Assembly (NCBI GenBank): GCA_038212275.1
Contig: JBBQUR010000015.1
Span: 1-64,000, forward strand
Origin: Planctomycetota bacterium
GTDB lineage: Bacteria > Planctomycetota > B15-G4
Length of the DNA: 64,000 nucleotides
Direction of reading: 5' to 3'
Shown: piece after piece, positions 39,412 to 64,000 of the stretch
How the letters are laid out: each line of letters begins with the position of its first letter
Position numbering within the stretch: the first letter of the stretch is position 1
Notes under the pieces: model-generated
The model's database searches: none
What the model saw: only the letters and a program-made list of their open reading frames with translations
What the model was told of the DNA's origin: nothing
Translations under genes and position numbers: made by a program

Positions 39412-39431
39412 GTCGCGCTCGCCGGCGTGCC

Positions 39432-43428: not shown

Positions 43429-44391
43429 ATGCTTCACGCCCTTCGCCACGCCTTGCCGGCCGCCGCCTGCGCGCTGCTGCTCACCTCCGGCGCAACCGCC
43501 GGCAACCTCGTCGTCAACGGCAGCTTCGAGACCGGGCCGGTGGTCAACCAGTTCATCGACCTGCCCGCCGGTTCGACGGCGATCGCCGGCTGGACCGTGG
43601 GCGGCTTCCACATCGACTACGCCGCTTCGACAACGTGGAACGCGTCGGACGGCTCGCACAGCGTCGACCTCGATGGCAGCGTCGCGACCCAACCCCGCAA
43701 CGGCTCGATCTTCCAGTCCTTCGCGACGACGCCCGGCCAGCAGTACAAGGTCACGTTCGACCTGAGCGGCAACACCTCGGGCGCCCCGACCGTGAAGCAG
43801 CTCGAAGTGAGTGCGGGCAACGCCGTGCAGGTCTACTCCTGCGACATCGGCACGATCGTGGCCTACGTGCCGCCGCTGGTGATCGTCTACAAGCCGCAGA
43901 CCTTCCTGTTCACCGCGACCTCCACCATGTCGACGCTCACGTTCAAGAGCCTCACGCAGCTCGGCCCGGCGCTGCCCGGATATGGCGCGGTCATCGACAA
44001 CGTGTGCGTCGAGCCAGCCTCTCCCTGGACCGACCTCGGCTTCGCGCTCGCCGGCGTCGCCGGCCTGCCGCAGCTCGTTGGCACGGGTCCGCTGACTGCG
44101 GGCTCGTCCGGCTCGATCGTGCTGAGCCACGCCGCGCCATCAGCGCCCTCGCTGCTCTTCATCGCGCTCGCCGCGCACCCGACGCCATTCAAGTGCGGCA
44201 CGCTGCTGCCGGTGCCGTGGGTCTCCACCTTCGCGCTCGGCACGAGCCCGGCCGGCGGCATCCCGCTCGGATGGGCCGCGTGGCCCGCGGGCCTCTCGGG
44301 CCTCTCGCTCCACTTCCAGTACGCCGTGAAGGACAACGCCGGCATCTGCGGCGTCTCACTCAGCAACGCGGTGCGCGGCAACGTGCCGTGA
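43429..44391 (+). CDS. Secreted choice-of-anchor C (DUF642-like) protein with conserved C-terminal domain, paralog 1
   Basis: Signal peptide; NLVVNGSFE..GWTV..IDY..SVDLDGS..FDLSGN..YGAVIDNV; CTD from 44026. Confidence 0.85.
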   Translation: MLHALRHALPAAACALLLTSGATAGNLVVNGSFETGPVVNQFIDLPAGSTAIAGWTVGGFHIDYAASTTWNASDGSHSVDLDGSVATQPRNGSIFQSFATTPGQQYKVTFDLSGNTSGAPTVKQLEVSAGNAVQVYSCDIGTIVAYVPPLVIVYKPQTFLFTATSTMSTLTFKSLTQLGPALPGYGAVIDNVCVEPASPWTDLGFALAGVAGLPQLVGTGPLTAGSSGSIVLSHAAPSAPSLLFIALAAHPTPFKCGTLLPVPWVSTFALGTSPAGGIPLGWAAWPAGLSGLSLHFQYAVKDNAGICGVSLSNAVRGNVP

Positions 44392-44462
44392 GGCCGGCCG
44401 CGCCGCTGCTACGTCGCCCCACTCTGCCTCCCGTCCATCACTCGATCAGGGATCTGAGAACC

Positions 44463-45428
44463 ATGACCCGACTCATCTCCCGCGCGCTGACCTCCGCCGC
44501 CTGCGCGCTGCTTCTCGCCTCCGCCGCGTCCGCCGGCAATCTCCTCGTGAACGGCAGCTTCGAGAGCGGGCCGCCCGTGCCCGGCCTCTACGTGAATCTG
44601 CTGGAAGGCTCCACCGCCATCCCCGGCTGGACCGTGGGCGAGCACCAGATCGACTACGTCGGGCCGTCGGCGTGGAACGCCTCGCAGGGACAGTTCAATC
44701 TCGACCTCGACGGCAGCGTGGGCCAGCCGCGCAACGGGTCCATCTACCAGACCTTCGCGACGACGATCGGGCAGCAGTACGTCGTGAGCTTCGACCTGAG
44801 CGGCAACATCTGGGGCCTGCCGCTGGTGAAGCAGGTGGAGGTCAGCGCCGGCAATGCCGTGGAGGTGCACTCGTTCGACATCGGCGCGGTGGTGCCGTTC
44901 GTCACGCCGGGGACGCTGTCCTACACGCACGAGACCCTCGTGTTCGTCGCGGTGTCGACGAGCACGACGCTCACCTTCAAGAGCCTCACGCAGCTCAGCT
45001 CCACCGCGCCCGACCACGGCCCGGTGCTCGACAACGTCGTCGTCGAGGCCGGCACCGCCACGTGGACCGACATCGGATTCGCGCTCGCCGGCGTCGCGGG
45101 CAAGCCGCAGCTCGACGGTACGGGCTCGCTCGTCGCAGGTTCACCCGGTGCGCTCGTGCTGAGCCACGCGGCGCCATCAGCGCCCGCACTGCTCTTCATC
45201 GCGCTCGCCGCGCACCCGACGCCATTCAAGTGCGGCACGCTGCTGCCGGTGCCGTGGGTCGTCTCCTTCGCGCTCACCACGAGCCCGGCCGGCAGCCTCA
45301 CGCTTCCATGGGCCGCGTGGCCCGCAGGCCTCTCGGGCCTCGGCATCTACTACCAGGTCGCCGTGAAGGACAACGCCGGCATCTGCGGCGCATCACTCAG
45401 CAATGCGGTGCGCGGCAAGGTGCCATGA
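44463..45428 (+). CDS. Secreted choice-of-anchor C (DUF642-like) protein with conserved C-terminal domain, paralog 2
   Basis: Colinear with paralog 1; NLLVNGSFE..HGPVLDNV; CTD from 45063. Confidence 0.85.
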   Translation: MTRLISRALTSAACALLLASAASAGNLLVNGSFESGPPVPGLYVNLLEGSTAIPGWTVGEHQIDYVGPSAWNASQGQFNLDLDGSVGQPRNGSIYQTFATTIGQQYVVSFDLSGNIWGLPLVKQVEVSAGNAVEVHSFDIGAVVPFVTPGTLSYTHETLVFVAVSTSTTLTFKSLTQLSSTAPDHGPVLDNVVVEAGTATWTDIGFALAGVAGKPQLDGTGSLVAGSPGALVLSHAAPSAPALLFIALAAHPTPFKCGTLLPVPWVVSFALTTSPAGSLTLPWAAWPAGLSGLGIYYQVAVKDNAGICGASLSNAVRGKVP

Positions 45429-45553
45429 GCCCCGCAAAGTGCTCCGCCCGCTGTGAGTGACGACCGCCCGCGAGAGGGGCGCAGGTCAAACAAGCGCCCC
45501 CCACCGTTCCGCAGCGCCCGCAGGGTGCCCTCCCTTCGGCCGTGAATGCCGGC
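45421..45553. repeat. Composite dispersed repeat; left part matches 54017-54074, right part matches 59605-59665
   Basis: CCCCGCAAAGTGxTCC..GCTGTGAGxGACGACCGCCC shared with the 54 kb copy; CAAGCGCCCCC..CCGCAGCGCCCGCAG..GCCGTGAA shared with the 59.6 kb copy. Confidence 0.75.
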
Positions 45554-45698
45554 CCGCCCGCGAAACGGCGCCACCTGGCAGCGGCAGGGCCGCAGCCGGA
45601 CCGCGCGCGGGCCGATCCGTCGATCCGGGCCCCTTCGGAGGGCGCTCCGGGCCGAGGGCGAGGTCAACTCGGGCGCTGGCCTCTGCTAGCCTGCGGCC

Positions 45699-48599
45699 GT
45701 GATGCGCAAAGGGGCCATGATCGTTGCGGTGCTGCTGGTGATGGTGGCTGCCGCGCTCGTGTTTCTAGGCCGGCCGCAGGATGCGGCGAATGACGACGTG
45801 GCCGTGCTGGCGCCGGTTTGCAGCTCGGTTGTCGAAGCCGCGACCCACGCACCCGATCTCAAGAGCGATGACACGTCGCGGTCGGCGCAGCCGCTGCACG
45901 CGCCGTTCGTCGTCGCGTCGCGCGCGGTCGATGCGCTGAACGCGGTGACAAACGCAGGCTCCGCGCGCGCGACCGCCGACGGCGCCGCACCCGCCTCCGC
46001 GTGGCGCGGTGTCGTCGTCGATGCGGATGGCGCGCCGCTGGCCGGCGCGCGCGTCGGGCGACTGCCGGCGCAAATCACTTTCAACTTCATCGCCGGACCG
46101 AGCGCGACGAACCCGACGCTGTTTGCCGACGCGACGTGGACCGACACCGGCGCCGACGGCTCGTTCGAGCTGCCATGGGCGCGGCCCGACAAGGACAACA
46201 TGCGCTGGGATGTCGTGGTGATCGGCGCCGGCCACGTGCCGCGACTGGTCCAGTGCGAGGACGCGCTGCTCGAGGGCGGCGACCTCGGCACGCTGGCACT
46301 GAGGCGCGGCGCCACTCTCACGGCGCGCCTGCTCGAAGCCGATGACACGCCTGTCGTCGGCGCGACGGTGACCGCCTCGCTGGGTCCATTCGGCGTGCGA
46401 CCCTTCACCGGCGCCCCCCCGCCGCCGCTCGGCCTGAACGAAGCGCTGCTCCAGGTGCGCACGGGAGACGACGGGCGCTTCACGCTCGCCGGGCTGCCGG
46501 GCGCGGACGTGTCGCTGCACATCAAAGCGGTGGGGCACGAGGACCTCGAGCTGCCCGTGCAAACGCTGGCGGCCGAAGGGGCGCTCGATCTGGGCGACCT
46601 GCGCATGTCGCGCGGCGGCCGCGTCTCGGGGCGCGTGCTCGATGTGCTCGGCGCACCCATCGCCGGAGCCGAAGTGCGCGCCAGCATCTCGGGACTCGAG
46701 ACACTGAAACTGTTCGAGCACGGCGTCCACTACGAGCTGGCGTCGGCGCGGTCCGGGATCACCACCGGGATTGACCGGTACAGCCTGCACGAGGCAGCGG
46801 CCTGCGTGACGGCAACCGATGCGGACGGCCGCTTTACGATCGACGGCCTCGTCAAGCCGATGTGCGCGGTGATCGCCGTGGCGCCGGGATACGAGCCGGT
46901 AGCTGCGGGCGAGTTTCCCATCGGCACGAGCGGCATCGAGCTGCGCCTGCAGCGCCTCGGCATGCTGCACGTGCGCATCGTGGACGATGCGGACGGCTCG
47001 CCGCTGGAGGACGCGACGCTGTCTCTCGTGCGCCGCCTCGGCTCCGATGCCAACTCGGAGGACGATCTTGGTGAAGCGATCGTCGTCGAGCGCTCCGGTC
47101 CGGGAGAGTTCATCGCGCACGGCATCTGCGACACGTCCTTCCTCGCGCTCGTGCGGTCGCCGGCGCTCGGCCTCGCCTTCGTGCCGCTGGACGGCCTCCC
47201 GTTCGGCCAGCTCCCTGCCGAGGCCTCGGTCGTGGTGCGCGTGCCGCGTGCGGCCTCGATCGAGGGTCGCGTCGTCACGTCGGCGGGCGAGTCCGTGCCG
47301 AAGGCGCGCGTGACACTCGCGCCCGGTTCGTATGCACAGTGCTTCGGCAAAGTACGCGAGGTCATCCTGCCGGTGGACAGGGAGGGGCGCTTCGCCTCCG
47401 GGCCGCTCCCGGCGGGACGCTGGGTCTTGACCGCCTCCGCGAAAGGACTTCACGTCGAAGCGCTCGACCTCACCCTGGTGCCGGGGCAGTCGGAGAGCGA
47501 TGTGTCGCTGCGCCTCTGCCGCGAGGTCTCGCTGTCCGTGCTGCAGCTCGACGCGGCCGGGCAGCCGGTGGTCGGCGCGCAGTTGAACGTCGTGAATGCT
47601 GCACGCCCCGCGGGTGGTGCCGATGTCCTGGGCTGGCGGAGCACAGACGCCACGGGCCGCGCAGAGTTCAGCGTGCCGGCCGGCGCGCTGCGCCTCGAGC
47701 AACGCAAGCCGCCGCTCGTCGTGGAGCTCGGCGTCCTGGCGGAGGGCGAGCAGCGCGTGTTGACGCTTCAGCAGCCGCGCGCGGCGGTGCTGCAGGGCAC
47801 GGTGCGCGCCGCTGCGTCGCCGGTTGCGGGCGCGGTGGTCTCCTTCACGCACGCCATGGGCCTGGTGCACACGACGACCGACGGCGCCGGGCGTTACCGC
47901 CTCGAGATTCCCGGCGACATGAGCGGCCGGGTGCGCGCGGTGTCGCCGCGCGGCGGCTTCGCGGTGCGGCAACTCGACACGCCGGCCGGCGCGACGCTCG
48001 ACGTGGACCTGGATTTCGGCGACCTCGTCCTGCACGGCACGGTGATCGACGTCGTCACCGGCGAGGGCGTCGCCGGGCTGTCCTTCCTGGTGTCGGGCCC
48101 CTCCGACTCGCCCTTCGTGCCCTCGGTCAAGAGCGACGCCACCGGCCGCTTCACGCTGGAGCATTTCGATGCAGGCACGTGGACCATCGGCGTGCGCGGC
48201 GACGACATCACGACGACCGAGCCCGTGGCTGTCACGTTGCCCGCCGCGCAGGACCTCGTCGTGCGCGTCGTGCGCACCGGCTCGGTGAGCGGCGTCGTGC
48301 GCCAGGCGCAGGGCTTCCCGGCAGCGAGCTTCCACTCGGTCTACCTGCTGGGTGCGGACAGCGCCGAGAACGCGGACCTGAACTGGGCGGCGCCGGGCAG
48401 TGCCGCTGCGCCGGACGGCGCTTTCCGTTTCACGGGCGTCGCGCCCGGCGACTACGTGCTGTGTGTCACGCGCCCGATGCATCGGGGAGGTCCGGGCAGG
48501 GACGTGATCGAGGCGCTGGCCTGGACGCGCGCCACCGTGCACGTGTCGTCGGGCGCCGACACCCAACAGGATCTGGTGCTGCCCGCCGGCATGCCGTGA
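45699..48599 (+). CDS. Membrane-anchored carboxypeptidase-regulatory-like (prealbumin/Ig-fold) repeat protein
   Basis: N-terminal TM; repeated G.V.D..G.P..GA.V and TD.DGRF...GL..G motifs. Confidence 0.8.
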   Translation: MMRKGAMIVAVLLVMVAAALVFLGRPQDAANDDVAVLAPVCSSVVEAATHAPDLKSDDTSRSAQPLHAPFVVASRAVDALNAVTNAGSARATADGAAPASAWRGVVVDADGAPLAGARVGRLPAQITFNFIAGPSATNPTLFADATWTDTGADGSFELPWARPDKDNMRWDVVVIGAGHVPRLVQCEDALLEGGDLGTLALRRGATLTARLLEADDTPVVGATVTASLGPFGVRPFTGAPPPPLGLNEALLQVRTGDDGRFTLAGLPGADVSLHIKAVGHEDLELPVQTLAAEGALDLGDLRMSRGGRVSGRVLDVLGAPIAGAEVRASISGLETLKLFEHGVHYELASARSGITTGIDRYSLHEAAACVTATDADGRFTIDGLVKPMCAVIAVAPGYEPVAAGEFPIGTSGIELRLQRLGMLHVRIVDDADGSPLEDATLSLVRRLGSDANSEDDLGEAIVVERSGPGEFIAHGICDTSFLALVRSPALGLAFVPLDGLPFGQLPAEASVVVRVPRAASIEGRVVTSAGESVPKARVTLAPGSYAQCFGKVREVILPVDREGRFASGPLPAGRWVLTASAKGLHVEALDLTLVPGQSESDVSLRLCREVSLSVLQLDAAGQPVVGAQLNVVNAARPAGGADVLGWRSTDATGRAEFSVPAGALRLEQRKPPLVVELGVLAEGEQRVLTLQQPRAAVLQGTVRAAASPVAGAVVSFTHAMGLVHTTTDGAGRYRLEIPGDMSGRVRAVSPRGGFAVRQLDTPAGATLDVDLDFGDLVLHGTVIDVVTGEGVAGLSFLVSGPSDSPFVPSVKSDATGRFTLEHFDAGTWTIGVRGDDITTTEPVAVTLPAAQDLVVRVVRTGSVSGVVRQAQGFPAASFHSVYLLGADSAENADLNWAAPGSAAAPDGAFRFTGVAPGDYVLCVTRPMHRGGPGRDVIEALAWTRATVHVSSGADTQQDLVLPAGMP

Positions 48600-48600
48600 C

Positions 48601-48678
48601 GCTGCGCGGTTTGCGCCGGTATGCCTGAGGCTGCGCGGTGTGCGTCGGCATGCCTGAGGCTGCGCGCGGTGCGCCGGC
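48601..48678. repeat. 29-bp tandem repeat, about 2.7 copies, between convergent genes
   Basis: GCTGCGCGGT(T/G)TGCG(C/T)CGG(T/C)ATGCCTGAG units. Confidence 0.8.
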
Positions 48679-48700
48679 TCAGCGCGCGCTCAAGGCCACT

Positions 48701-50026
48701 TCAGCGAGCCGCCAGCCACGCGCGCCACGCGGCGGCGAATGTCCTGTTGGAGTTCGGCGGCGCACTGTCGGGCCCGTCGGCGAAGTCCGGGCCGCCGCCG
48801 TACAGCCAGCGCAAGGCCTTGTCGAAGCCGGCAAGCTGCGCCTGCCTGGCGGGCGCCTGCTCATCCGCGGCGAACACATCGAGACACCGACCCACGAAGG
48901 GTTTCGCGCCGGCGGCGAGTCCCTGCATCAGCATCAGGGCGTCACTCGCATTCAGTCGCCGGCACTCATCAAAGGTGGGAGCAAGGTCGCGGCCCAGCTC
49001 CTCGAAGGCCTCGGCATCGAAGGCCGCCGTCCGCGTGCAGTCTTCCTCGTGATGCTCTCGCTCGCGATGCGCGGGAATGTGGACGGCGATCCAGCGCATC
49101 GAGGCAGCGTCATCGTCGCGGTAGACGGCGACGACCGCGAAGCCGGTGCACGGGTCGCCCCCGTTGAAGTTGACGGTCAGCAGGCGCGCGCGCTCCGCGC
49201 CGTCGAGGGCGCCGCGGCGCGCCAGTTCCGAGCGCGCGACCTCGGGCCCCACCGACTTCGGGAAGCGAGTCGTCAGCGCCGCCAGCAGCAGCGTGCCTTC
49301 CTCGACGTGCCCGGTGCGCAGCAGCAGCAGACCGTAGCGCGCGAAGAGCAGGTCCTCGCCGGCGATGCCGCCGCGCTCCGGCTCCGAGATCACCGAGGCG
49401 TCCAGGGCGGCCTCGTGCAGGAGCGCCAGCGCGCCGCCGAAATCTCCGCGCCGCTCCGCGAGCTCGGACTTGCGCTGGAAGACCACCACGGTGTTCTCCG
49501 CCGTGCACCAGATGCACGCATCGGCGCCCCAGGTGTCCACGTCGTCGAGAATGCGCTGCGCCTCGTCGAAGCGCCCGAGGAGGTCGAGCAGCACGTAGCG
49601 ATCCATCTGCGACGACACGCTCTGGGTGGCGCCGGTCTCCGGCAGGCCTTGGTCGCCGACACTTTCGAGCAGTTCCTGTGCGGCTGCCTGCAGCGCCGGC
49701 CACTGCGGCGCGGCGCGCGGATCACCGCCGAAGCGCTGCGGATACAGAGCGAGCCGCGCCGCGAGCACCGAGCCGGGATCAGGCGCACAGAATTTGCGGC
49801 TCGCGCCGAAGCACTCGCGCATCTGCACGAGCAGACCCTGGAGTTCGAGGAACTCCTGTTCGACGGCGCCGTCCGGGTTTGTCGCCGCAACGTGCGGGTC
49901 GCCTGCGGCCGAGGCGTCCTGCCCCTGAATCGCCTCGGTGGCTCCGCGCGGTGGGTCCTGTGCCAACGCAGCGCGCGAGCCGCAGACGAGCATCACCACC
50001 GCGAGGGCCCCGAGCGCCGGCTTCAT
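48701..50026 (-). CDS. Secreted helical (TPR-like) hypothetical protein, paralog B
   Basis: Signal peptide; QMDRYVLLDLLGRFDEAQ, GADACIWC, ARYGLLL; ATGA-coupled to paralog A. Confidence 0.75.
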   Translation of the reverse strand: MKPALGALAVVMLVCGSRAALAQDPPRGATEAIQGQDASAAGDPHVAATNPDGAVEQEFLELQGLLVQMRECFGASRKFCAPDPGSVLAARLALYPQRFGGDPRAAPQWPALQAAAQELLESVGDQGLPETGATQSVSSQMDRYVLLDLLGRFDEAQRILDDVDTWGADACIWCTAENTVVVFQRKSELAERRGDFGGALALLHEAALDASVISEPERGGIAGEDLLFARYGLLLLRTGHVEEGTLLLAALTTRFPKSVGPEVARSELARRGALDGAERARLLTVNFNGGDPCTGFAVVAVYRDDDAASMRWIAVHIPAHREREHHEEDCTRTAAFDAEAFEELGRDLAPTFDECRRLNASDALMLMQGLAAGAKPFVGRCLDVFAADEQAPARQAQLAGFDKALRWLYGGGPDFADGPDSAPPNSNRTFAAAWRAWLAAR

Positions 50027-51273
50027 CGCGCCGCCAGCCATGCGCGCCACTCACCGGCGAACTGCGCACCGTCACCTTCGTTCAGCGAGCGAGACAGGCT
50101 CGGCCCGCCGCCATGCACCCAGCGCAGCACTGCGTCGATCGGACCGGTGGTCGCGAGGGAGGTCTCTCCGCCACTCACCTGCGCGAGGAGCGGCTCGACG
50201 TACGGCGCCGCACCACCGCGCAGGCCCTGCGCGAGCCGCAACGCGGGGCCGACCATCCACGGTCGCTGCTCGTTGCCGAGCAGATTCGTTTCGAGTGCCG
50301 GCCGGAGCTGCTCGAATCCTTCCGGGTCGAAGGTCGCGGTGTGCGAACCCCACTCGTCTCCGGTGTTGGGCAGGCGCGCTGCGAGGATCTGCAGCCAGCC
50401 GGGGCGGGCCGCGTCGGTCAGCACGAGGGCGGCGGTCATCCGGCAGTAACCGCCCCACTCGAGGATCACGACGTCGAGTGCGGGCTGCGCCTCGTCGACC
50501 GCCACGCCGCGCCGCGCGAGTTCGGCCTGCGCGAGCTCGGCACCGATGCTGCCTGGGTAGACGCGTACCACGAAACGGAGCACGCCCTCGCCCTCGGTGC
50601 CGTGGCCGGTGCTGCACAGCAGCAGGCCGTAGCGGGCGTGCATCAGGTGCGCGCTCGGATGCTGGCCGCCGCCGATCACGGCATCCGGCAACTCGAAGCA
50701 GGCCTCCTGCTGCCAGCGCAGCGCGCCCGCGAGGTCTCCGGCGCGCTCGCAGGCCTCCGAGCGGCGCTGATACACGACGAAGCCGTTGTCGGCGGTGCAG
50801 GTGTGGCAGCCGTCCGCGCCGAAGACGCGCACGTTCTCGAGGATCGCCTGCGCCTCATCCGCGCGACCGACAAGGTCGAGCAGTACGGAGCGGTCCATCT
50901 GGCGCGCCACGTCGTAGTCGCTGAGCGGCGCACGCGTGGCCGGGTTGTCGAGGCGGTCGAGGAGTGCCTGCGCCGCGGCGGCCAGCGCCGGCCACTGCGG
51001 CTCGAGCCGCGGATCGGTGCCGAAGCGCCACCGGAACACGGCGAGCCGCACGGCAATATCGGAGCACGGATTGGGCGCGCACCATTTGCGCGAACGCCCG
51101 AAGGACTCGGGGACCTGGGCGAGCAATGCCTGGAGTGCGCGCAACTCACGCGCGATGGCGGCATCGGCAACGGGCGCCGCCGGCGGCGCTGCGTCCTGTG
51201 CGGCGTGCGCGCTGATCGACAGCGCGGCCGCCGCCAGCACGACTCCACGAAGCCCGGTCATCAGAGTCATCAT
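50023..51273 (-). CDS. Secreted helical (TPR-like) hypothetical protein, paralog A
   Basis: Signal peptide ..AHAAQD; QMDRSVLLDLVGRADEAQ, GADGCHTC, ARYGLLL, WRAWLAAR end shared with paralog B. Confidence 0.75.
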   Translation of the reverse strand: MMTLMTGLRGVVLAAAALSISAHAAQDAAPPAAPVADAAIARELRALQALLAQVPESFGRSRKWCAPNPCSDIAVRLAVFRWRFGTDPRLEPQWPALAAAAQALLDRLDNPATRAPLSDYDVARQMDRSVLLDLVGRADEAQAILENVRVFGADGCHTCTADNGFVVYQRRSEACERAGDLAGALRWQQEACFELPDAVIGGGQHPSAHLMHARYGLLLCSTGHGTEGEGVLRFVVRVYPGSIGAELAQAELARRGVAVDEAQPALDVVILEWGGYCRMTAALVLTDAARPGWLQILAARLPNTGDEWGSHTATFDPEGFEQLRPALETNLLGNEQRPWMVGPALRLAQGLRGGAAPYVEPLLAQVSGGETSLATTGPIDAVLRWVHGGGPSLSRSLNEGDGAQFAGEWRAWLAAR

Positions 51274-51530
51274 TGCGGGTGCCCTTGCTGCGCCGCTGCG
51301 CGTGTTCCCGGAGTGCCCGGGCCAGGAAGTGCCCGCGGCCGGGCGGGAGGTTACCGGAGGCTCCCGTGTTCGCGCTGTCCAGCCACTCGTGCCACGCCTG
51401 CGCGAAGGCGTCGAACGCATCGAGGACTCGATCGCATGCGGGCCGCCCGCGCCGTAGGATCCGCAGGCCCGGTGAAGTAGTGTTCCGCGATCGGCCGATC
51501 GCGCGGTCTGTGCGGCTCGGGGAAATCACC

Positions 51531-52220
51531 ATGCGTCACCGCTTCCTGCCGCCGCTGGGTCCGGCGCTCATGCTGGCCGCGCTGCTGCTCCCCGGTTGCA
51601 TCGGTCTGCGGACTTACGGCGAGGACCGCGTGCGCGACCTCTCCGACGTGATCGACGTGCGCTACGGCACGGGCTTTGGGCTCGGTGCCAGCGTGCAACT
51701 TGGCCCCGCGTTCTCGACCGGCCTCGGCTGCTCGCCGGAGTGGTACACGCGGGAGTGGTTCGGCCGGAAGTCGGTGGAGGTGGACGACGGCCTCTTCGCC
51801 GGCGGGCTCCTCGTCAGCTACGACGGCGACTATGTCCGGCGCAGAGGCGAGAGCGCCTGGGTGCGCAGGGGGGACTCGACGACCGGCTCCTTCAGCGTGC
51901 TCATCTTCACGATAAATACCGGCCGCGGCGGCCCCTTCGCCGGCGACGCCGCCTGGTTCGAAGAGCCCGCAGGCAGTCCGCCCCTCTTCACCGCCATGCG
52001 CATGGGCGGCACCGTCTACCTGCCCGGCGTGAACGGCGGCCTGTACTGGAACATCGGCGAGACACTCGACTTCTTCTGCGGCCTCGTCACCTACGATCCG
52101 ATGCACGACGACGGCTACCCCAAGTTCTTCACGCCCGGCGCACCTGCGCCCGTATTGGCGCCCGCATCGATCCCGGACTCGGCGTCGTTGTCGGACTCGG
52201 CCCCGCCGTCGTCGCCGTGA
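51531..52220 (+). CDS. Hypothetical lipoprotein
   Basis: LAALLLPGC lipobox; YGEDRVRDLSD..GETLDFFCGLVTYDPMHDD. Confidence 0.7.
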   Translation: MRHRFLPPLGPALMLAALLLPGCIGLRTYGEDRVRDLSDVIDVRYGTGFGLGASVQLGPAFSTGLGCSPEWYTREWFGRKSVEVDDGLFAGGLLVSYDGDYVRRRGESAWVRRGDSTTGSFSVLIFTINTGRGGPFAGDAAWFEEPAGSPPLFTAMRMGGTVYLPGVNGGLYWNIGETLDFFCGLVTYDPMHDDGYPKFFTPGAPAPVLAPASIPDSASLSDSAPPSSP

Positions 52221-52372
52221 GCGGCTGCGGCTGAGACGCGACCGCGTGCGTCGCGGCCAGTGGTTGCAACGGCCGTGCAGCGAATGCCTGAAAGGTTCAT
52301 CCCTTCGTCGGCGATCGCGCACGAGTGCTCTGAAGCCAGGCGATGCGGTGCGCGCTCTCGCCTCTCGCGCGG

Positions 52373-52860
52373 ACGCAGGAAGATCCGAAGGCCGCCGCAG
52401 ATCAGGTCGTGCACTGGATCGTCGAGCGCCAGAATGCGGACGGGAGTTACGCGCCGAGCTCGCCGACATGTGCCGCGTGCTCGACCTGCTCGGCCGCTGT
52501 CCGCGCCGCTACACGGAGCTCGACGGTCCGTTCTTCCGCCGCGCGGCGAAGCGCGTTGCCGAGGCGGCCGCTCGCACGGACGGCAAGCCCTCCACCGACG
52601 CGACGTCTGCCGCCATGTCCGGCGCGCCTCCCGACGCGCTCGGTCTCGCCGCGATGCTTTCGCCCGCTTTCCAGCAGCCGCGCGATGCCGCGCGCGCGCG
52701 CCTGCGCGCGCAGTCGCCCGACGGCGATTACGACCGATGGTTCGCGCTGCGCTCGTTCCCCGACGACACCGCCCCGCTGCCGACGGGCTCGGCCGCAACG
52801 GCTGCCGCACCGGCCATCGACTCGGCGCGCGCCGTCGTGATGCCGGTGCGGGCCGGGTAG
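52373..52860 (+). pseudogene. Frameshifted fragment with a prenyltransferase/squalene-cyclase QW-like repeat
   Basis: AADQVVHWIVERQNADGSY in one frame continues after an apparent 1-nt shift near 52458 as LADMCRVLDLLGRCPRRY; no credible start. Confidence 0.5.
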
Positions 52861-52871
52861 CATTGCAGCAG

Positions 52872-52906
52872 ATTCAGCATTCAGCGTTCAGCGTTCAGCA
52901 TTCAGC
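52872..52906. repeat. Heptamer tandem repeat (A/G)TTCAGC x5
   Basis: Read directly from the sequence, upstream of the esterase gene. Confidence 0.85.
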
Positions 52907-52950
52907 GATCGGCCTTCGCCGGCCACTGGCGTCACACGCATCGGGACCTC

Positions 52951-54003
52951 ATGCCGAAACCCGCAACGACCCGCCGCCGCCGGCTCCACGTCCACGTTCC
53001 CGCTGGGCAGGGAAGCGTGGTGCTGCGCACCGATGCCGATTGGGAGCGCGACCTGCAGCCCGTCTCCGTTTCCGCGGACGGCAACACCTCGACCTTCCAG
53101 CTCGAGAGCCCGCGGCCGTTCGTGTACCTCAAGCCCTGCCTGAGGACCGCGACCGGCGCGTTGCGCTGGGCGGTCGGGCCCAACCTGCTCGCGCTCATGA
53201 CCTTCACCGCGGAAGCCCACGTCCACCCGTATTTCGACGGCAGCGAGAAGGGGTCGTTCTCGGAGCTGGTCGAGCTCGACAGCAGGATCCTCGGCCGCAA
53301 GCATCGGCTGCGCGTCTACCTGCCGCCGGGCTACCGCGAGAACCCGCTGCGAAAATACCCGGTGTTCTACATGCACGACGGCAAGAACCTGTTCTTCCCG
53401 GCTGAGGCCTTCATGGGCCGTGACTGGCAGGTCGACGACAGCCTGCAGATGCTCGACTCGATGAGCGCGATCGATCGCGTGCTGATCGTGGGTGTCCACT
53501 CCGGCGACCGCAACAGCGAGTACACGAAACCCGGATACGAAGCCTACGCCCGCTCGATCGTCGAGGAAGTGCGGCCCGTCGTTGCCGCGAAGCTGCGCGT
53601 GCACGACAGCCCCCGCGAGACCGGCGTGATCGGCTCGTCGCTCGGCGGTGTCGCCGCTTTCTACATGGCGTGGCAATACCCGCAGGTCTTCGGCTTTGCG
53701 GCCTGCATGTCGAGCACCTTCTCGTACCAGGACGACCTGATCGAGCGCGTGCTCTCCGAGCCCAGGTCCACGTCGAAGTTCTATCTCGACAGCGGCTGGC
53801 CGAACGACAACTACGAGGTCACGCTCGCGATGGCGATGGCGCTTTCCGAGCGTGGCTACAAGGTGCGCGAGGACTTCCTGCACCTTGCGTTCCCCGGCGA
53901 GCAGCATGACGAACGCGCCTGGAGCCGCCGGCTGCACCTGCCGTTCCAGCTCGCGATGGGCCGCCCCGTCGTCGGGCAGCGGCGCAGCAAGCGGAAAGCC
54001 TGA
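52951..54003 (+). CDS. Putative esterase (Fes/IroE-like alpha/beta-hydrolase)
   Basis: RVYLPPGY..YPVFYMHDGKNLF, GSSLGG, HDERAW. Confidence 0.88.
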   Translation: MPKPATTRRRRLHVHVPAGQGSVVLRTDADWERDLQPVSVSADGNTSTFQLESPRPFVYLKPCLRTATGALRWAVGPNLLALMTFTAEAHVHPYFDGSEKGSFSELVELDSRILGRKHRLRVYLPPGYRENPLRKYPVFYMHDGKNLFFPAEAFMGRDWQVDDSLQMLDSMSAIDRVLIVGVHSGDRNSEYTKPGYEAYARSIVEEVRPVVAAKLRVHDSPRETGVIGSSLGGVAAFYMAWQYPQVFGFAACMSSTFSYQDDLIERVLSEPRSTSKFYLDSGWPNDNYEVTLAMAMALSERGYKVREDFLHLAFPGEQHDERAWSRRLHLPFQLAMGRPVVGQRRSKRKA

Positions 54004-54016
54004 CGATGCCGCGGAC

Positions 54017-54074
54017 TGACGTGACCCCCGCAAAGTGGTCCACGCGCTGTGAGAGACGACCGCCCCCGACAGGG
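54017..54074. repeat. Isolated IS-end-like repeat (TG-initiated, IS3-family-like), no transposase
   Basis: TGACGTGACCCCCGCAAAGTGGTCCAC; similar copy at 45421. Confidence 0.5.
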
Positions 54075-54123
54075 CAAGGCGTCCCTCGTGAAGAAGCGCA
54101 CGCAGCCCGCGCGCCACCAGGCG

Positions 54124-55830
54124 CTACGGCTTCAGCGCGATCACCAGCGCATTGCTCAGGCCGATCGGCTCGCTGCCCGCATAGCCGGTGATGACGAACT
54201 GCGCGTAGAAGTTCGCCGGGCCGCCGCCGCCCGGGAAGCTCGGAATCAACAAGTTGCCTGTGGGCAACGGGGGGAAGGTGAGCAGCACCGAGCCCGCGAG
54301 CTTGGGCACGAGCGTGCCGCCCTTGAACGACGTGAGGCCAAGGCCCGCCGAGAGAAGCAGGAAAGGGTGGCCGCCGAATGGCACGCCGGTCAGCTCGAAG
54401 TCGGCCTTGCTGCCACTCTGGAGCTGGCCGCCGTAGACCGAGAAGGTCGCGAGGTGCGGGCCCTGGAAGCCGAGGTTGGCTTGATAGGTGAGCTGGCCGA
54501 TGCACTCCGCGCCGCCGGCGTTGCTCGCGATCGCATCGCCGTCGGGGAGGCCAACGAGCAGGTCGGGCCAGCCGTCGTCGTTCACGTCGAGGCCGCCGTC
54601 GAAGCTTGCGTGCTGGCTCACGCCGGAGCCGGTGAAGAAGTCGTGCTGCTTCACGAGGCTGCCGTCACCGCCGTCGAAGACGCGCACGAAGCCGCCGCCC
54701 GAGGGCACGCCCGCTTCCGTGCCGCCGATCGCCACGTCCGGAAGGCCGTCCTTGTCGATGTCGCCGGCCTTGCAGAGCCACGTGCCGAAGCGCTCGCCCG
54801 CGTTGACCCCGGGGTAGACGCGCACGAGGGTTCCCGCGGCGCCTTCGTAGAGGTATGCGGCGCCGACGCCGGAGCCGGATGCGCCGTCGCCCGGCGCGCC
54901 CACCAGGAGTTCGCGCACGCCGTCGCCGTCGGTGTCGCCCACGGCACAGAGGGCCGTGCCCAGGCTCTGGAAGTCCTGGCCGAACTCCTTGTAGAGCACG
55001 GCGTGCGTGCTGCCGTTGTAGACGGTCACGCTGCCCGCAGCCTCGTTGAAGATGAGGAACGGAAAGAGCTGCAGGAAGTCTTCCGCCGGCGCGCCGATCG
55101 CGTACTCGCTGCGGCCGTCGCCGGTGAGGTCTCCGAGCAGCGCCACCGACCAGCCGAAGAGGTCGCCGTCCTTCAGGCCCTCGTGGTGCATGAGGAGCGT
55201 GCCGGTTGCACCGTTGTAGAGGTTCGCGTAGCCCTCGTTGTTGGTCGTGCCGGTCTTGTCCCAGTGCGGCGCGCCGATGAGGATGTCCGGGATGCCGTCG
55301 CCGGTCACGTCGGCGTTGCTCGCGATCGAGTCGCCGAAGCGCGCGCTCGTCGAGCTGCCCTGAAACGTGCGCAGCACGGCGCCGGTCGAGCCGTTGTAGA
55401 GCGTGACGCGGCCGGCGTCCGTCAGGATCTGGAAGCCGGAGGGCACGTCGGCGCGCGGCGCGCTCACGAGCAGGTCGGGCACCGAATCCCCATTGATCAG
55501 CCCGGCCACGGCCACGACCTGTCCGTAGGTGCTGCCCGCGCTGTCCCCGTGAAACTGCTTGAGCAGGATGTGCGGCGCGCTGCCATTGATGAGGTACGCC
55601 GAGCCGTTGGAGGCATCCTGCGGCGCGCCGATGAACATCTCGGCGTGGCCGTCGCCGTTCACGTCGGGCACCAGCGCGACCGACTCGCCCCAGTGGTCGC
55701 CCGCGCTGACGAAGCCGCCGCCGAGGCCGTACCAGGTCTGGTCCTGCGCGGTGGCCGCGGGTGCTGCCGCCAGCAGGAGTTCGATCGCCGTGCAGCAAAG
55801 CAGAAACGCATGGGAGGCAGAGTTCTTCAT
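54124..55830 (-). CDS. Secreted FG-GAP (integrin-alpha-like) seven-blade beta-propeller with conserved C-terminal domain
   Basis: Seven Dx(N/T/D)xDG..(G/S)AP-like repeats (DVNGDG, LINGDS, DVTGDG, DLTGDG, DTDGDG, DIDKDG, DVNDDG); ends FKGGTL..YAQF..LSNALVIALKP. Confidence 0.88.
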   Translation of the reverse strand: MKNSASHAFLLCCTAIELLLAAAPAATAQDQTWYGLGGGFVSAGDHWGESVALVPDVNGDGHAEMFIGAPQDASNGSAYLINGSAPHILLKQFHGDSAGSTYGQVVAVAGLINGDSVPDLLVSAPRADVPSGFQILTDAGRVTLYNGSTGAVLRTFQGSSTSARFGDSIASNADVTGDGIPDILIGAPHWDKTGTTNNEGYANLYNGATGTLLMHHEGLKDGDLFGWSVALLGDLTGDGRSEYAIGAPAEDFLQLFPFLIFNEAAGSVTVYNGSTHAVLYKEFGQDFQSLGTALCAVGDTDGDGVRELLVGAPGDGASGSGVGAAYLYEGAAGTLVRVYPGVNAGERFGTWLCKAGDIDKDGLPDVAIGGTEAGVPSGGGFVRVFDGGDGSLVKQHDFFTGSGVSQHASFDGGLDVNDDGWPDLLVGLPDGDAIASNAGGAECIGQLTYQANLGFQGPHLATFSVYGGQLQSGSKADFELTGVPFGGHPFLLLSAGLGLTSFKGGTLVPKLAGSVLLTFPPLPTGNLLIPSFPGGGGPANFYAQFVITGYAGSEPIGLSNALVIALKP

Positions 55831-56120
55831 GGCTGGCGTCGACCAAGGGGAAGGAAGGGAAACCGGAAGCATCCGGCCTTCGACCCAGAGCCGGAATCCG
55901 CGCGGGCCGTTACACCGCTCCCCGCATCGGAGCGTCGGACCGGCGCCCGCACGGCACGGCCCCAGCAGCCGCCGCGTCCCGCCGCGCCTCGCACCGGCCC
56001 CGCACCAGCGCCGCACCAGCGCCGCACCGGCCCCGCACCGCAGCAGCCTCCGACCGACGGGTCGCGTTCCCGGATAGAGTGCGTCGCGAAGCATCGTTCG
56101 GGCCATGGATCCAGCCAGTG

Positions 56121-57302
56121 ATGATCAAGCGCGTCCTTCCGACGTCCCTTCTGCCGCTCCTGCTCTGCGGCCTCGCGGCTCAGGTCCCTGCGCAGATCGC
56201 GGCGTGGCCCGCCGGCCCCGGCGTCGAGATCGGCCACGAGGGTCTGCCCGGCGGCCTGCCAGCGGCCTTCGAGAGCAGCGGCATCGCGTGGCATCCGGGG
56301 CGCAACAGCCTGCTGGTCGCGAGCGACTCGGGCCTGATCGCCGAGCTGCCGGCGGGCGGCGGCGCGCCGACGGTCTGGTCGCTGCCGGGCGACCTCGAAG
56401 GCCTCACGATCAAGGACCCGGCGAGCAACCTCGTCTACGTCGGCGTCGAGAGCCCCGACAGCATCGTGGAGTTCAACCTGGCGACGGGCTCGACCACGGG
56501 CAACTCGTGGAACCTCACCACGTGGATGACCGGCCCCAGCAACGAGGGCCTCGAGGCGCTCGCGTACGTGAACGGCGAGTTCTGGGCCGGGCTGCAACTC
56601 AACGGCAACATCTTCCGCTTCAAGCTGATGCCCGGCGGCGTGGTGCAGTTCCTCGGGAGCATGCCCAGTCACCTGGGGCGCGCGGATCTCGCGGGCCTCG
56701 AATGGGATCCGTGCACCGGCGTGGTCTACGCGCTGCACGACACGGCCAACGTCCTCGTGGAGTACGACAGCAACGGCACGTTCCTGCGCGAGTACGCCGC
56801 GACCGGCACCGACCAGGAGGGCGTCGCATTGCAGCACGGCTCGCCGACCGCCGCCGCGACGATCTGGTTCGCGCAGGACACGGGCGAGGTCACCCGCTAC
56901 GAGGGCTACCCCGTCACGCCGTGCCCGCCCGGGACGTGGACCGACCTCGGCGGTGGCACGACGGGCAGCGCCGGCGCGCCGCACCTTGCAGGCAGCGGGC
57001 CGCTGCAGGGCGGCTGGAGCTTCGCGCTCGACCTCGCGTCGGCGCCGCCCGGCGCGCCGATGCTCGCGGCGCTGTCGTTCGCGTCCAATCCCATCGCGGC
57101 GTTCGGCGGCACCTTCCACGCGCTGCCCATCGCGAGCCAGTTCATCCTCGCAGCCGACGGCGGCGGCGGATTTCATATCGCATCGACCTGGCCGGCCGGC
57201 GTGCCGTCCGGCACGACTTTCTGGTTCCAATTCATCGTGAAGGACACGGCGCACACGCCGCAGCTCACGCTGAGCAACGGCCTGCGCGCGACGGCGCCGT
57301 GA
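56121..57302 (+). CDS. Secreted YjiK/SdiA-regulated-like beta-propeller with conserved C-terminal domain
   Basis: ESSGIAW, DLEGLT, NEGLEALA, DLAGLEWD, QEGVAL blades; CTD WTDLG..FQFIVKD..LSNGLRATAP from 56937. Confidence 0.78.
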   Translation: MIKRVLPTSLLPLLLCGLAAQVPAQIAAWPAGPGVEIGHEGLPGGLPAAFESSGIAWHPGRNSLLVASDSGLIAELPAGGGAPTVWSLPGDLEGLTIKDPASNLVYVGVESPDSIVEFNLATGSTTGNSWNLTTWMTGPSNEGLEALAYVNGEFWAGLQLNGNIFRFKLMPGGVVQFLGSMPSHLGRADLAGLEWDPCTGVVYALHDTANVLVEYDSNGTFLREYAATGTDQEGVALQHGSPTAAATIWFAQDTGEVTRYEGYPVTPCPPGTWTDLGGGTTGSAGAPHLAGSGPLQGGWSFALDLASAPPGAPMLAALSFASNPIAAFGGTFHALPIASQFILAADGGGGFHIASTWPAGVPSGTTFWFQFIVKDTAHTPQLTLSNGLRATAP

Positions 57303-57562: not shown

Positions 57563-58513
57563 TGTCCAAACCGGGCACATGGGTGACAGAAACGTCCGGG
57601 CACATGGGTGACACATCAGGCTGTTCGGCAGGAGGGCCTGCCGATGCCGTAGTTGGAGTCACGTGTGGACGATCGATTGAAGTTCATGAAGGAGTACGGT
57701 TCTGGGCGCTGGCCGGTGGCCGAGCTCGCGCGCCGACACGGGATCAGCCGCAAGACGGCGCATGAGTTCATCGCTCGCTTCAAGGAGCGTGGCGCCGAGT
57801 GTCTGTGCGATCTGTCGCGAGCGCGGCATGCACAGGATCACCAGGTCACGCGACACGTCGAGCAACGGATCGTCGCGGCCGCACGCCAGTGGGGCTGTTG
57901 GGGGCAGCGCAAACTAGGCGCAATTCTCAAGCGCCGCGCGCCCGATATCGATTGGCCCGCGAAGAGCACGGTGGGAGACACCTTGAAGCGCCATGGGCTC
58001 GTGACGCCTCGGCATCTGCACCGGCCGACTGCGGCCTCATCCCGCACCCGGCTCGCGCCGGCCAGCGAGCCCAATGACCTGTGGTCGACCGACTTCTAAG
58101 GCTGGTGCCTGAGCGGCGCGCGCGAGCGCCTGGAGCCGTTCACGCTGGGCGACACCTGCAGTCGCTACGCCCTGGCGTGCACGCTCGTCAGCTCGATTCA
58201 CACGGAAACGGTGTGGCCGATCTTTGCGCATTGCTTCCGCGAGTACGGTCTGCCGCGGCGCATTCGCAGCGACAATGGGCCGCCTTTCGGCAGTGGCGGG
58301 CTTGCCGGCCTCTCGGGCCCGAGCGTGCGCTGGCTGCGCCTGGAATCCGCCCGGAGCGCATTCAGCCCGGCAAGCCGCAGCAAAACGGAGCGATCGAGCG
58401 CTTCAATCACGTGCGTCCACACGAGGCGCTCGGTGATCGCACGCCGGCGGAGGTGTACACGCCGTCACCGCGGCGCTTTCCCAGGAAGCTGCCGGAGTTT
58501 CATGACGGCCCGC
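57563..58513 (+). mobile_element. Decayed IS481-family element (left end plus disrupted transposase)
   Basis: TGT terminus at 57563; 18-bp direct repeats CCGGGCACATGGGTGACA at 57571 and 57596; HTH GISRKTAH; DDE motifs WSTDF / SDNG / IERF; right end missing. Confidence 0.85.
57644..58513 (+). pseudogene. IS481 transposase pseudogene
   Basis: ATG-CCG-TAG (usual MPW start) with stop at 57650; TAA at 58097; frameshift near 58342; apparent internal deletion between IERF and NHVRPHEAL. Confidence 0.85.
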
Positions 58514-59215
58514 AACGGCGCGGAGACGGCGACGTGGCCCGACGGCGGCACGACGCCCTTCAAGGGCGAGAAGGGCACGACCTGGGAAGGCGGCTTCCGC
58601 GTGCCGATGCTCGTGCGCTGGCCGGGCGTCATCAAGCCGGGCACGATCATCAACGACATCTTCTCGCAGGAGGACTGGCTGCCCACGCTGCTCGCGGCGG
58701 CGGGCGAGCCCGACATCGTGGAGAAGTGCAAGCAGGGCTACGCGGCCAACGGCAGGGACTTCAAGGTCCACCTCGACGGCTACAACTTCCTGCCTTACTT
58801 CAAGGGCGAGGTCGCCAAGGGCCCGCGCGAGGAGATCTTCTACTTCGGGCAGGGCGGCGATCTGAACGCCGTGCGCTGGAACGACTGGAAGGTGTCCTTC
58901 GCCGTCGAGAACGGCAACATCGCCACCGCGACGCGCGACGTGCCGGGCTGGCCGGAGATCGTCAATCTCCGCGCCGACCCGTATGAGAAGGCGCCGCACG
59001 AGTCGGGCATGTACATCCGCTGGTACGCCGACAACATCTGGCTCTTCGTGCCGGTACAGACCAAGCTCAAGGCTTTCCTGCTCACGCTGCCGGAGTTTCC
59101 CTTCCAGCAGGGCAGCAGCCTGAACGCGGCGGGCATCAACTACAACTCGCTGAAGGCGATGCAGGCCATGAAGCGCCTGAACGAATTGGAGACGCTGCCC
59201 GCTCCAGGCAACTGA
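58514..59215 (+). pseudogene. C-terminal half of an arylsulfatase, 5'-truncated
   Basis: NGAE..PFKGEKGTTWEGGFRVPMLVRWPG..DWLPTL..LDGYN..NLRADPYE; no N-terminal CxPxR region; abuts the IS481 relic. Confidence 0.85.
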
Positions 59216-62387: not shown

Positions 62388-62459
62388 GACCCGAACTCCC
62401 GCGCGAGAGACGGACGGAATCATGCCGCACGGGCCGCGCCCGTGTCAGGCCCGCCCCGC

Positions 62460-64000
62460 TCACGGCCCGGGCGCGACGTACAGCGTCACGTCGCGCGTTT
62501 CACCGGGCGCGAGTGACACCACCTGCGCCGCGAGGCCCAGGCCATCGAGGGCCGCCGCGGTGTTGCAGCTTTGCCTGTCACCGGTGGAGAACACGGCCAC
62601 TCGGTACTGGCCCGGCGGCAGATTGCCAGATGACAGCCATCCCGCGAACCGAGGAAAGTGCCGTACCACTCGTACGTCGTCGCCGGGAGGCGGGTTGAGG
62701 CCCCAGGCGACCGTGGAGGCTTCGGCAGTTTGCCCGTTGGGGCCAAGCACGGTGATGCGCATGCAGGCTGCAGGCGGCAACGCGATGCGCAGCCCGCTCA
62801 CGACCTGACCCGCGGCAACCGTCACGGGTACGGGCTCCAGCGGGAAGTGCCCGGGCGCGCTCACCAACCAGCGGAAGGTGCCCGCGCCCACGCGTGGCAC
62901 CACGAAGAGACCCTGAGCGTCGGTCCTCACCGCATCGGCACCCGAGAGACTCACCTGCGCGCCCGGCAGGGGCTCTCCGGAGAGCGCATCGAGCACCAGG
63001 CCCTCCACGCGCCCGCTGCCGAGCTGCAGCACCAGCAGGATGTCCGCATCGGGCACGAGATCGACTCGCCCGACCTCGCTCGCTGCGCCGCCGTCCAGCA
63101 GCGCCCGCACCACGATCAGGCCCATTTCGTCGAGCGTGAGCCGCGCCTCGCCCTGCGCGTCGGTGACCGGCAGCCTGCCGGCCTGCTTGACGGACGGGAG
63201 GACACCGGTCCGCTGGCTATTGTCATCGAGGTGCGCCCAGTGAATGCGCGCACCCGCCACGGGCTGGGCTCCGTCCAGCACGCGCACGCGGAGCCGCGGT
63301 GGTGGCGGCACCACGAGCCGCACGCTGCTGACCTCTCCCGCCACGACATCCACCGGACAGCGCGTACCCCTGGGTCCGCGCAGAACCCAGCCACCGGGCA
63401 TGAGCCCGGTCGCGCGGAAGCAGCAGCCGGCATCCAGATTCACGTCGACTCCGGGCAGTCTCCGGGAACTCTTGAGGGGGTCGTCGAACGCCCGCTCCAC
63501 CAGCCTGACGGTCCAGTCGTGGAGCAGTGGCGAACAACTGCCGTCGACATCGACGATGCAGCCTTCGACAGCGCCGGTGCGCTGCACCGTGAGCACCACG
63601 TCGGCGCGGGATTCACCTGCCGCGAGAGTCAGCTCGGTTTCCTCGGCCTCGGCCAGCTCGTCGCCACTCGGTGTGATGCCCCACTCCCCTGCGCCAAGGC
63701 CGCGGGCGGCGAACGCACCCGCCGCGTCCGTGACAGCTTCGTGCACGATGGCGTGGTCGGGGTGCATGCCCTCCAACTGGAAGCGCAGTCTCACTTGCGG
63801 CATGCCTGCACCTCGCTCGTCCACGACGCGGCCCTGCACGCGCGCCTCGGGCGCCAGCACGACGTGCACGTGCGGGGGCAACACCGCCGACGACGATGTG
63901 TCACGCGCGGAACATCCCTGGAGCTCGACAGCCTGCTGCTCGGACACGAGCAGTTCCAGATTGATGCATCGCGTCGCGAAGCCCGGCGCCTCCACGCACA
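62460..64000 (-). CDS. Carboxypeptidase-regulatory-like repeat protein, partial (5' end beyond the window)
   Basis: QGRVVDERG, TDAAGAF, EGLVLDALSGEPLPGAQV motifs; frame runs to the window edge. Confidence 0.75.
   Translation of the reverse strand, partial: CVEAPGFATRCINLELLVSEQQAVELQGCSARDTSSSAVLPPHVHVVLAPEARVQGRVVDERGAGMPQVRLRFQLEGMHPDHAIVHEAVTDAAGAFAARGLGAGEWGITPSGDELAEAEETELTLAAGESRADVVLTVQRTGAVEGCIVDVDGSCSPLLHDWTVRLVERAFDDPLKSSRRLPGVDVNLDAGCCFRATGLMPGGWVLRGPRGTRCPVDVVAGEVSSVRLVVPPPPRLRVRVLDGAQPVAGARIHWAHLDDNSQRTGVLPSVKQAGRLPVTDAQGEARLTLDEMGLIVVRALLDGGAASEVGRVDLVPDADILLVLQLGSGRVEGLVLDALSGEPLPGAQVSLSGADAVRTDAQGLFVVPRVGAGTFRWLVSAPGHFPLEPVPVTVAAGQVVSGLRIALPPAACMRITVLGPNGQTAEASTVAWGLNPPPGDDVRVVRHFPRFAGWLSSGNLPPGQYRVAVFSTGDRQSCNTAAALDGLGLAAQVVSLAPGETRDVTLYVAPGP

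Follow-up and report, generated by a model that had tools for sequence, protein, structure and literature searches.

An Uncatalogued, Lineage-Restricted Domain on Exported Planctomycetota Proteins and Its Possible Role in Envelope Docking

Introduction

In Bacteroidota, the C-terminal domain (CTD) of type IX secretion system (T9SS) cargo (Por_Secre_tail, PF18962/TIGR04183; type B, TIGR04131) is a beta-sandwich of roughly 80–120 aa that ends many unrelated signal-peptide proteins, and a genome may encode from dozens to over 100 of these carriers. The type I dockerin (PF00404), a duplicated calcium-binding helical motif of ~60 aa, is an appended module that is usually terminal and position-tolerant, and the SLH and OmpA-like domains are folded modules that bind wall polymers non-covalently and hold exported proteins on the envelope. 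Tails of the PEP-CTERM type (PEP-CTERM/exosortase, IPTL-CTERM, and VPDSG-CTERM) consist of a short motif, a transmembrane (TM) helix, and a basic tail, and are processed by a sorting enzyme. Planctomycetota are important marine polymer degraders, and little is understood of how exoproteins are placed in the unusual envelope of these bacteria. Here, we analyzed a stretch of 64,000 nucleotides from a Planctomycetota bacterium (lineage B15-G4; assembly GCA_038212275.1, contig JBBQUR010000015.1, positions 1 to 64,000, forward strand; hereafter, the window), in which a first-pass annotation made from the sequence alone had noticed four secreted proteins sharing a C-terminal domain of ~120 aa, and had proposed that this domain is a secretion or attachment tag.

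This Planctomycetota domain, whose copies we also call CTDs, resembled each of the described systems in part. Like the T9SS CTD, it is a predicted beta-sandwich that ends many unrelated signal-peptide proteins, but it had no sequence match to that domain, is not strictly C-terminal, occurs on an inner-membrane enzyme, and belongs to a different phylum. As with dockerins, it is an appended, usually terminal but position-tolerant module, and the two occupy the same slot in orthologous hydrolases of the metallo-beta-lactamase (MBL) fold (the domain in 84 of 120, Dockerin_1 in 15 of the other 36); however, it is an all-beta sandwich of 120 aa without a PF00404 match, and we know of no cohesin-like receptor for it. 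PEP-CTERM, IPTL-CTERM, and VPDSG-CTERM tails are found in other lineages on the same choice-of-anchor C passenger, whereas the Planctomycetota domain is folded and largely uncharged, lacks a TM helix and a basic tail, and lies in a genome without a detected exosortase. OmpA tails were also found on 3 of 120 choice-of-anchor C homologues, but the domain showed no sequence relationship to SLH or OmpA. What is new in this analysis is the family of N-terminal copies, the exchange with known anchors, the conserved fusion to a GT-C enzyme, the bias in composition, the negative tests for machinery, and a pointer to a cultured carrier.

Results and Discussion

A Shared Terminal Domain on Four Exported Proteins

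We found that the domain is a real, lineage-restricted, and abundant family that serves exported Planctomycetota proteins as a common handle, and that it is uncatalogued, without an entry in Pfam or NCBIfam. In the four window proteins (P1–P4), the last 120 residues gave no Pfam or NCBIfam match at E ≤ 1, and the domain profile gave 0 matches against the sequences of the PDB at E ≤ 10. The accessible portions of the literature that was searched did not describe the domain. The four proteins and their CTDs are as follows:

43429..44388, + strand: P1, signal peptide, choice-of-anchor C (DUF642) region, and terminal domain; stop codon at 44389-44391
44463..45425, + strand: P2, paralogue of P1 with signal peptide, choice-of-anchor C region, and CTD
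54127..55830, − strand: P3, signal peptide, FG-GAP propeller, and divergent CTD
56121..57299, + strand: P4, signal peptide, SdiA-regulated/phytase-like propeller-like region, and CTD
44026..44388, + strand: CTD of P1, from the alignment, the genome profile (E 3.4e-36), and an all-beta AlphaFold model (pLDDT 97.4)
45063..45425, + strand: CTD of P2, 81% identical to the P1 CTD; genome profile E 8.1e-37
54127..54486, − strand: CTD of P3, a divergent subtype that starts ANLGF... and ends LSNALVIALKP, 27% identical to the P1 CTD; genome profile E 1.1e-13
56937..57299, + strand: CTD of P4, 41% identical to the P1 CTD; genome profile E 1.8e-31

The observation that prompted the first-pass annotation held at these positions: the last ~120 residues of P1–P4 were alignable with 18 invariant columns, and all four N-termini were signal-peptide-like when the translations were judged by eye. 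Conserved residues include the FKGG hairpin and, in the numbering of P1, Gln98, Asp103, and Ser113-Asn114. The profile was seeded with these four CTDs, and their own scores therefore match partly by construction. The FG-GAP copy was the most divergent one, as claimed; it matched the genome profile over positions 13-117 only, and copies of a similar subtype exist in the genome. The domain was also correctly set apart from PEP-CTERM tails, since it has neither a TM helix nor a basic tail. Its composition was biased: charged residues made up 6.9% of the domain versus 14.9% of the passengers, and arginine 0.8% versus 3.9%, although the genome is GC-rich. The sequence ahead of the domain showed neither a conserved linker nor a cleavage motif. 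The domain is shuffled between unrelated passengers: the CTD of P1, a DUF642 protein, was 60% identical to the CTDs of two FG-GAP proteins.

The passengers of the four proteins differed in how well they could be assigned. The NCBIfam model TIGR04362 (choice_anch_C) was covered in full (positions 1-157) by both P1 (132.9 bits) and P2 (140 bits; cut-off, 120), and both also matched the Pfam family DUF642 (P1, E 1.9e-17). The P3 passenger is an FG-GAP propeller with seven matched stretches (128.1 bits, E 8.7e-38, above the Pfam cut-off). P4 matched SdiA-regulated (PF06977) weakly (25.6 bits; cut-off, 21) and only over profile positions 23-73 of 249, and its score against the Pfam family Phytase-like (24.7 bits) was below the cut-off of 27.6. 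A weak CBM_4_9 match of P1 at residues 25-122 lies in the passenger, outside the terminal domain, and no named Pfam family of carbohydrate-binding modules (CBMs) or immunoglobulin (Ig) domains was found on the terminal domain itself.

Predicted Fold

With an alignment of 94 sequences, AlphaFold returned an all-beta model of the domain at very high confidence (predicted local distance difference test, pLDDT, 97.4; predicted TM-score, pTM, 0.89). A Foldseek search of this model against the PDB found nothing at E ≤ 1e-3, and the only T9SS-cargo entry among the matches listed was HBP35 (5y1a; E 2.4e-2, TMq 0.36). Exhaustive structural alignment with VIA-align retrieved generic Ig-like and macroglobulin (MG) domains, with best Z scores of 8.3 (LILRB4) and 8.7 (A2ML1), values in a range that is common among unrelated beta-sandwiches. 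No T9SS CTD, cohesin, or SLH chain was present among the best 50 rows of either VIA-align list, and a weak resemblance to the N-terminal beta-domains of dextranases and pectate lyases was seen at Z ~7. The modeled fold is thus an Ig-like beta-sandwich, which is uninformative on function.

Copy Number, Position, and Distribution

The source genome comprises 4.65 Mb in 40 contigs, with about 70% GC and 91% completeness. Iterating the profile over the six-frame stop-to-stop open reading frames (ORFs) of the whole genome, we obtained 146 matched ORFs (P1–P4 and 142 others), 140 of them at ≥ 38 bits. Since the same profile finds 142 further ORFs, the shared similarity of P1–P4 is not due to chance. 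The copies were spread across contigs and unclustered, each protein carried one domain, and tandem arrays were never seen in this genome. In 134 of the 140 copies (96%) the domain ended within 12 residues of the stop; among the 131 copies at ≥ 40 bits, 109 ended 2-3 residues ahead of the stop, and the last residue was proline in 87. The remaining 6 of the 140 copies were N-terminal or internal. Thus, the earlier description of the domain as terminal held for nearly all copies and failed for these six.

We addressed the distribution of the domain by searching the 94-sequence alignment against 1.84 billion public cluster representatives (50% identity), of which 17,293 matched at E ≤ 1e-3 and 7,505 at E ≤ 1e-10. 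In all of the 150 best representatives, at most 12 residues followed the domain, and proline was last in 125; the nearest ESM-Atlas clusters were unnamed ones, mostly from Planctomycetota. All 42 genomes of the class, which consists of a single order, contained the domain; many of these genomes had at least about 106 scored matches, and one family had only 6-14. In a phylum-wide sample, the domain was found in 38 of 201 genomes and was all-or-none within every family that was tallied separately. In a second phylum, that of a record titled Verrucomicrobia, it was found in 0 of 101 genomes. This record came from a search for related loci with a single CTD, which returned five loci, all from metagenome-assembled genomes; three are titled Planctomycetota bacterium and one uncultured Phycisphaeraceae bacterium. 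The fifth, the Verrucomicrobia record, was rejected as a spurious match of 24 residues, and that genome has 0 profile matches.

Passengers and Export

In a Pfam search (E ≤ 1e-5) with 118 ORFs of the genome that carry a CTD, FG-GAP-type repeats were present in 27, and 51 had no Pfam family. The other passengers included Kelch, GSDH, DUF7948 with SBBP, beta-helix, sulfatase, peptidases S8, M10, and M12, CHRD, LTD with endonuclease/phosphatase, DUF642, Phytase-like, BNR/sortilin, PD40, and Laminin_B, together with single cases of an MtrC-like multihaem cytochrome and a di-haem cytochrome c peroxidase (CCP_MauG). Typically cytoplasmic passenger families were absent from these 118 ORFs. The first-pass annotation had named a match to a characterised CBM or Ig domain, cytoplasmic passengers, and a mere handful of copies per genome as outcomes that would speak against a tag; all three were sought, and none was encountered.

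Signal peptides were called by a crude in-house heuristic. With any start codon allowed, a signal-peptide-like start was found in 116 of 134 CTD ORFs versus 856 of 1533 controls. At a single start picked by the GC content of third codon positions (GC3), a method that often landed on internal Met codons, the counts were 69 of 134 versus 381 of 1533. Among public representatives of ≥ 250 aa with called starts, 94 of 116 were signal-peptide-like.

Further architectures were observed in the source genome. A near stand-alone form of 214 aa (G000:C2:80518-81462, + strand) consists of a signal peptide, a Gly/Pro-rich spacer of ~70 residues, and the domain. The one internal copy (G000:C28:566-2224, + strand) follows a signal peptide and a TSP_C-like domain, scores 138 bits, and precedes a C-terminal region of 173 residues. 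Two adjacent giant proteins (G000:C4:144058-155152, − strand; stop-to-stop ORFs of 1301 and 1771 aa) have the domain near the N-terminus, followed by GSDH, TIG, and Kelch, and the longer one also has Malectin.

Non-terminal Copies and Exchange with Known Anchors

The clearest non-terminal copy was observed in an exported MBL hydrolase, in which the domain directly follows the signal peptide. This arrangement was kept in 84 of the 120 best public homologues, one of which is named for the cultured Engelhardtia mirabilis. Full-length N-terminal copies scored about 84-138 bits, in the same range as C-terminal copies. The "last" proline of the C-terminal copies was also present in 59 of 76 N-terminal copies, which indicates that it is a structural feature and not a signal of the free C-terminus. 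In the 36 homologues without the domain, Dockerin_1 occupied the slot in 15 and nothing was found there in others. In many of the hydrolases with an N-terminal copy, the Trp at which the domain begins is preceded by a Cys-Cys pair that lies after the region of signal-peptide cleavage (...CCDPWTDLG...). A preprint on Saltatorellota (10.1101/817700) describes Engelhardtia mirabilis; in the accessible part of its text, the terms "C-terminal", "signal peptide", and "FG-GAP" do not occur.

A second informative architecture was a polytopic PMT_2 (GT-C) membrane glycosyltransferase, in which a soluble domain is followed by a Gly-Ala run of ~45 residues and then by the CTD. The fusion was retained by 7 of 8 public homologues (40-60% identity), the eighth being a fragment of 453 aa. 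The C-terminal soluble part of GT-C enzymes faces the periplasm, and a polytopic inner-membrane enzyme of this kind cannot be secreted cargo. A second PMT_2 (GT-C) enzyme, in the window at 37474-39669 (− strand), ends in an F5/8 type C (discoidin, F5_F8_type_C) binding module, a parallel to the fusion elsewhere in the genome which suggests that these enzymes carry binding modules at the C-terminal position.

The choice-of-anchor C passenger showed a similar exchange. Among its 120 nearest homologues, this CTD was found in 16, and Pfam assigned 23 PEP-CTERM, 2 VPDSG-CTERM, 2 IPTL-CTERM, 3 OmpA, 3 CARDB, and 1 dockerin. The earlier expectation that choice-of-anchor passengers have interchangeable tails was therefore borne out, with PEP-CTERM, OmpA, dockerin, and this CTD all found at the same place on homologues. 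Taken together, two unrelated passenger families, the MBL hydrolases and the choice-of-anchor C proteins, indicate that the domain alternates with established anchoring devices.

Search for Machinery

We searched the whole genome for components of the described systems. An exosortase/archaeosortase (TIGR04178) was not found in the genome, with a positive control in three archaea. PF07589 (PEP-CTERM), PF18962 (the T9SS CTD), and SprA (TIGR04189) gave no match in the genome, and for each of these three the control genomes were silent too; SprA was the only T9SS component in this search. Dockerin type I (PF00404) had no match on P1–P4 and none in the genome at E ≤ 1e-4.

In addition, we clustered the non-overlapping ORFs that lie no more than 5 kb from a CTD gene, 677 in all. 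The sole large recurrent neighbor family comprised Ser/Thr kinases with tetratricopeptide repeat (TPR) tails, with 36 paralogues genome-wide and 19 within 5 kb; these neighbors may hint at regulation and are not machinery. A sulfatase cluster of five was also among the neighbors. No candidate for a translocon, a peptidase, a barrel, or a sortase-like protein was found among the clustered neighbors. In the window, two uncharacterized exported genes situated between the CTD genes, at 48704-50050 and 51528-52217, were considered as general machinery and rejected, with no homologue detected in three distant CTD-positive and two CTD-negative genomes by single-protein queries.

Docking and Alternative Roles

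Of the proposed secretion or attachment tag, use as a tag is supported by about 140 exported proteins, diverse passengers, and swaps with anchors, and the secretion-signal half is weakened in favor of docking. We propose, at about an even chance of being right, that the domain is a docking or retention module, non-covalent and tolerant of position, that acts like a dockerin or an SLH/OmpA-type anchor without belonging to any of these families. Sec-exported proteins would use the Ig-like beta-sandwich to attach to a common receptor of the cell envelope, be it a protein, a glycan of the envelope, or further domain copies, and the module would work like a dockerin or SLH domain and not like a cleaved export signal. 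The domain would bind something, and its partner, because of the GT-C fusion, would lie in the envelope where it can be reached from the periplasmic side. Several points weigh against this proposal. No receptor was found, and the binding itself is what we infer. The fold matches are generic and Ig/macroglobulin-like, silent on function, and the periplasmic placement of the GT-C tail is predicted from the general topology of that family. The MtrC-like passenger would be expected at the outer face of the cell and would argue for a receptor there. The terminal position of 134 of the 140 copies is stricter than a position-free module requires and still fits a C-terminal signal. The distribution tests were neutral as well: a complementarity with exosortase was rejected (15 of 38 CTD-positive versus 72 of 163 CTD-negative genomes), and genomes rich in dockerin (≥ 10 matches) numbered 14 of 163 CTD-negative and 0 of 38 CTD-positive, a difference that is not significant and in which related genomes are not independent. 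One to three dockerin matches were found in 13 of the 38 CTD-positive genomes, and a complementarity of dockerin and CTD is suggestive only.

A more far-reaching version, which we consider a tentative possibility, is that the domain serves as the address label in a sorting or scaffolding system of Planctomycetota yet to be discovered, in which a dedicated envelope receptor or translocon would read the folded beta-sandwich anywhere in the chain. With 140 copies in 4.65 Mb, we estimate that such a system would organize about one gene product in thirty, among them enzymes, cytochromes, propeller adhesins, and even a membrane glycosyltransferase. It would have its own machinery and be the counterpart, in Planctomycetota, of cohesin-dockerin or T9SS.

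It is unlikely, in our judgment, that the domain is a T9SS-like C-terminal signal for an undiscovered outer-membrane translocon, after which it would be cleaved and the cargo released or covalently attached to the surface. The 134 of 140 copies at the extreme C-terminus speak for such a signal, as do the resemblance of copy number, beta-sandwich fold, and passenger diversity to T9SS cargo sets, and the processed sorting signals that choice-of-anchor passengers bear elsewhere. However, the obligate C-terminal position on secreted cargo that characterizes T9SS was not observed: the N-terminal domain is conserved in the MBL family (84 of 120), the polytopic inner-membrane GT-C fusion is conserved in 7 of 8 homologues, and one internal copy exists. 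Moreover, neither a linker nor a cleavage motif is conserved ahead of the domain, the T9SS CTD models had no match on P1–P4, and no recurrent neighbor was translocon-like. The earlier idea that outer-membrane machinery reads the domain as a C-terminal export signal thus fits poorly with the N-terminal MBL family, the GT-C enzyme, and the proline of the N-terminal copies. Appended beta-sandwiches on hydrolases, sulfatases, and peptidases, the lectin-like modules (e.g., F5_F8_type_C) that GT-C enzymes here also bear, and the weak likeness at Z ~7 to the beta-domains of dextranases and pectate lyases would suit a CBM-like or adhesin-like role, in which the domain would bring enzymes and adhesins to a polymer or surface outside the cell, which it binds instead of the cell's own envelope. 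We regard this role as rather improbable, since the passengers are mostly not carbohydrate-active (27 of 118 are of FG-GAP type and 51 of 118 have no family), the copy tethered to the inner membrane would be unable to reach an external substrate, the domain exchanges with the cell-anchoring devices dockerin, PEP-CTERM, and OmpA, a single copy per protein on about 140 proteins per genome would be unusual for a CBM, and no Pfam CBM matched the domain. A self-associating coat, in which contacts between domains would join the tagged proteins in a protein layer at the surface or in the periplasm, has only a slim chance, in our view; the low content of charge and arginine would suit protein-protein packing, and the near stand-alone protein of 214 aa and the same handle on about 140 proteins are also consistent with a coat of this kind. 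Finally, a structural Ig-like spacer or stabilizing cap without a targeting role would agree with the generic Ig/macroglobulin-like fold, but exactly one copy per protein, nearly always at the very end and never in tandem arrays in the genome, together with the shuffling among unrelated passengers and the alternation with bona fide anchors, makes this role very improbable.

The domain defines a set of proteins that share a destination, and offers a concrete handle on the placement of exoproteins in Planctomycetota, with about 140 exported proteins per genome and 17,293 public representatives. A Pfam or NCBIfam model of the domain would improve the annotation of thousands of "hypothetical" proteins, and the domain could be used as bait for the receptor. 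The name of at least one carrier protein refers to the cultured Engelhardtia mirabilis, so the docking proposal can be tested at the bench.

Other Genes of the Window

Three proteins of ~950 aa in the window consist of repeated CarboxypepD_reg domains (45690-48596, + strand; 59670-62444, − strand; 62463-64000, − strand), each with one N-terminal hydrophobic anchor, and the first of these genes begins 270 bp beyond P2 on the same strand. The genes at 48704-50050 (− strand) and 50026-51525 (− strand) are neighboring exported paralogues without a Pfam family. A protein with collagen triple-helix repeats (E 9e-17) is encoded at 141-2270 (− strand). At 57653-59212 (+ strand), a transposase with helix-turn-helix (HTH) domains followed by an rve integrase core runs into Sulfatase, SGSH_C, and Sulfatase_C fragments in the same ORF region, which looks like an insertion sequence (IS) element inserted in a sulfatase gene just downstream of P4.

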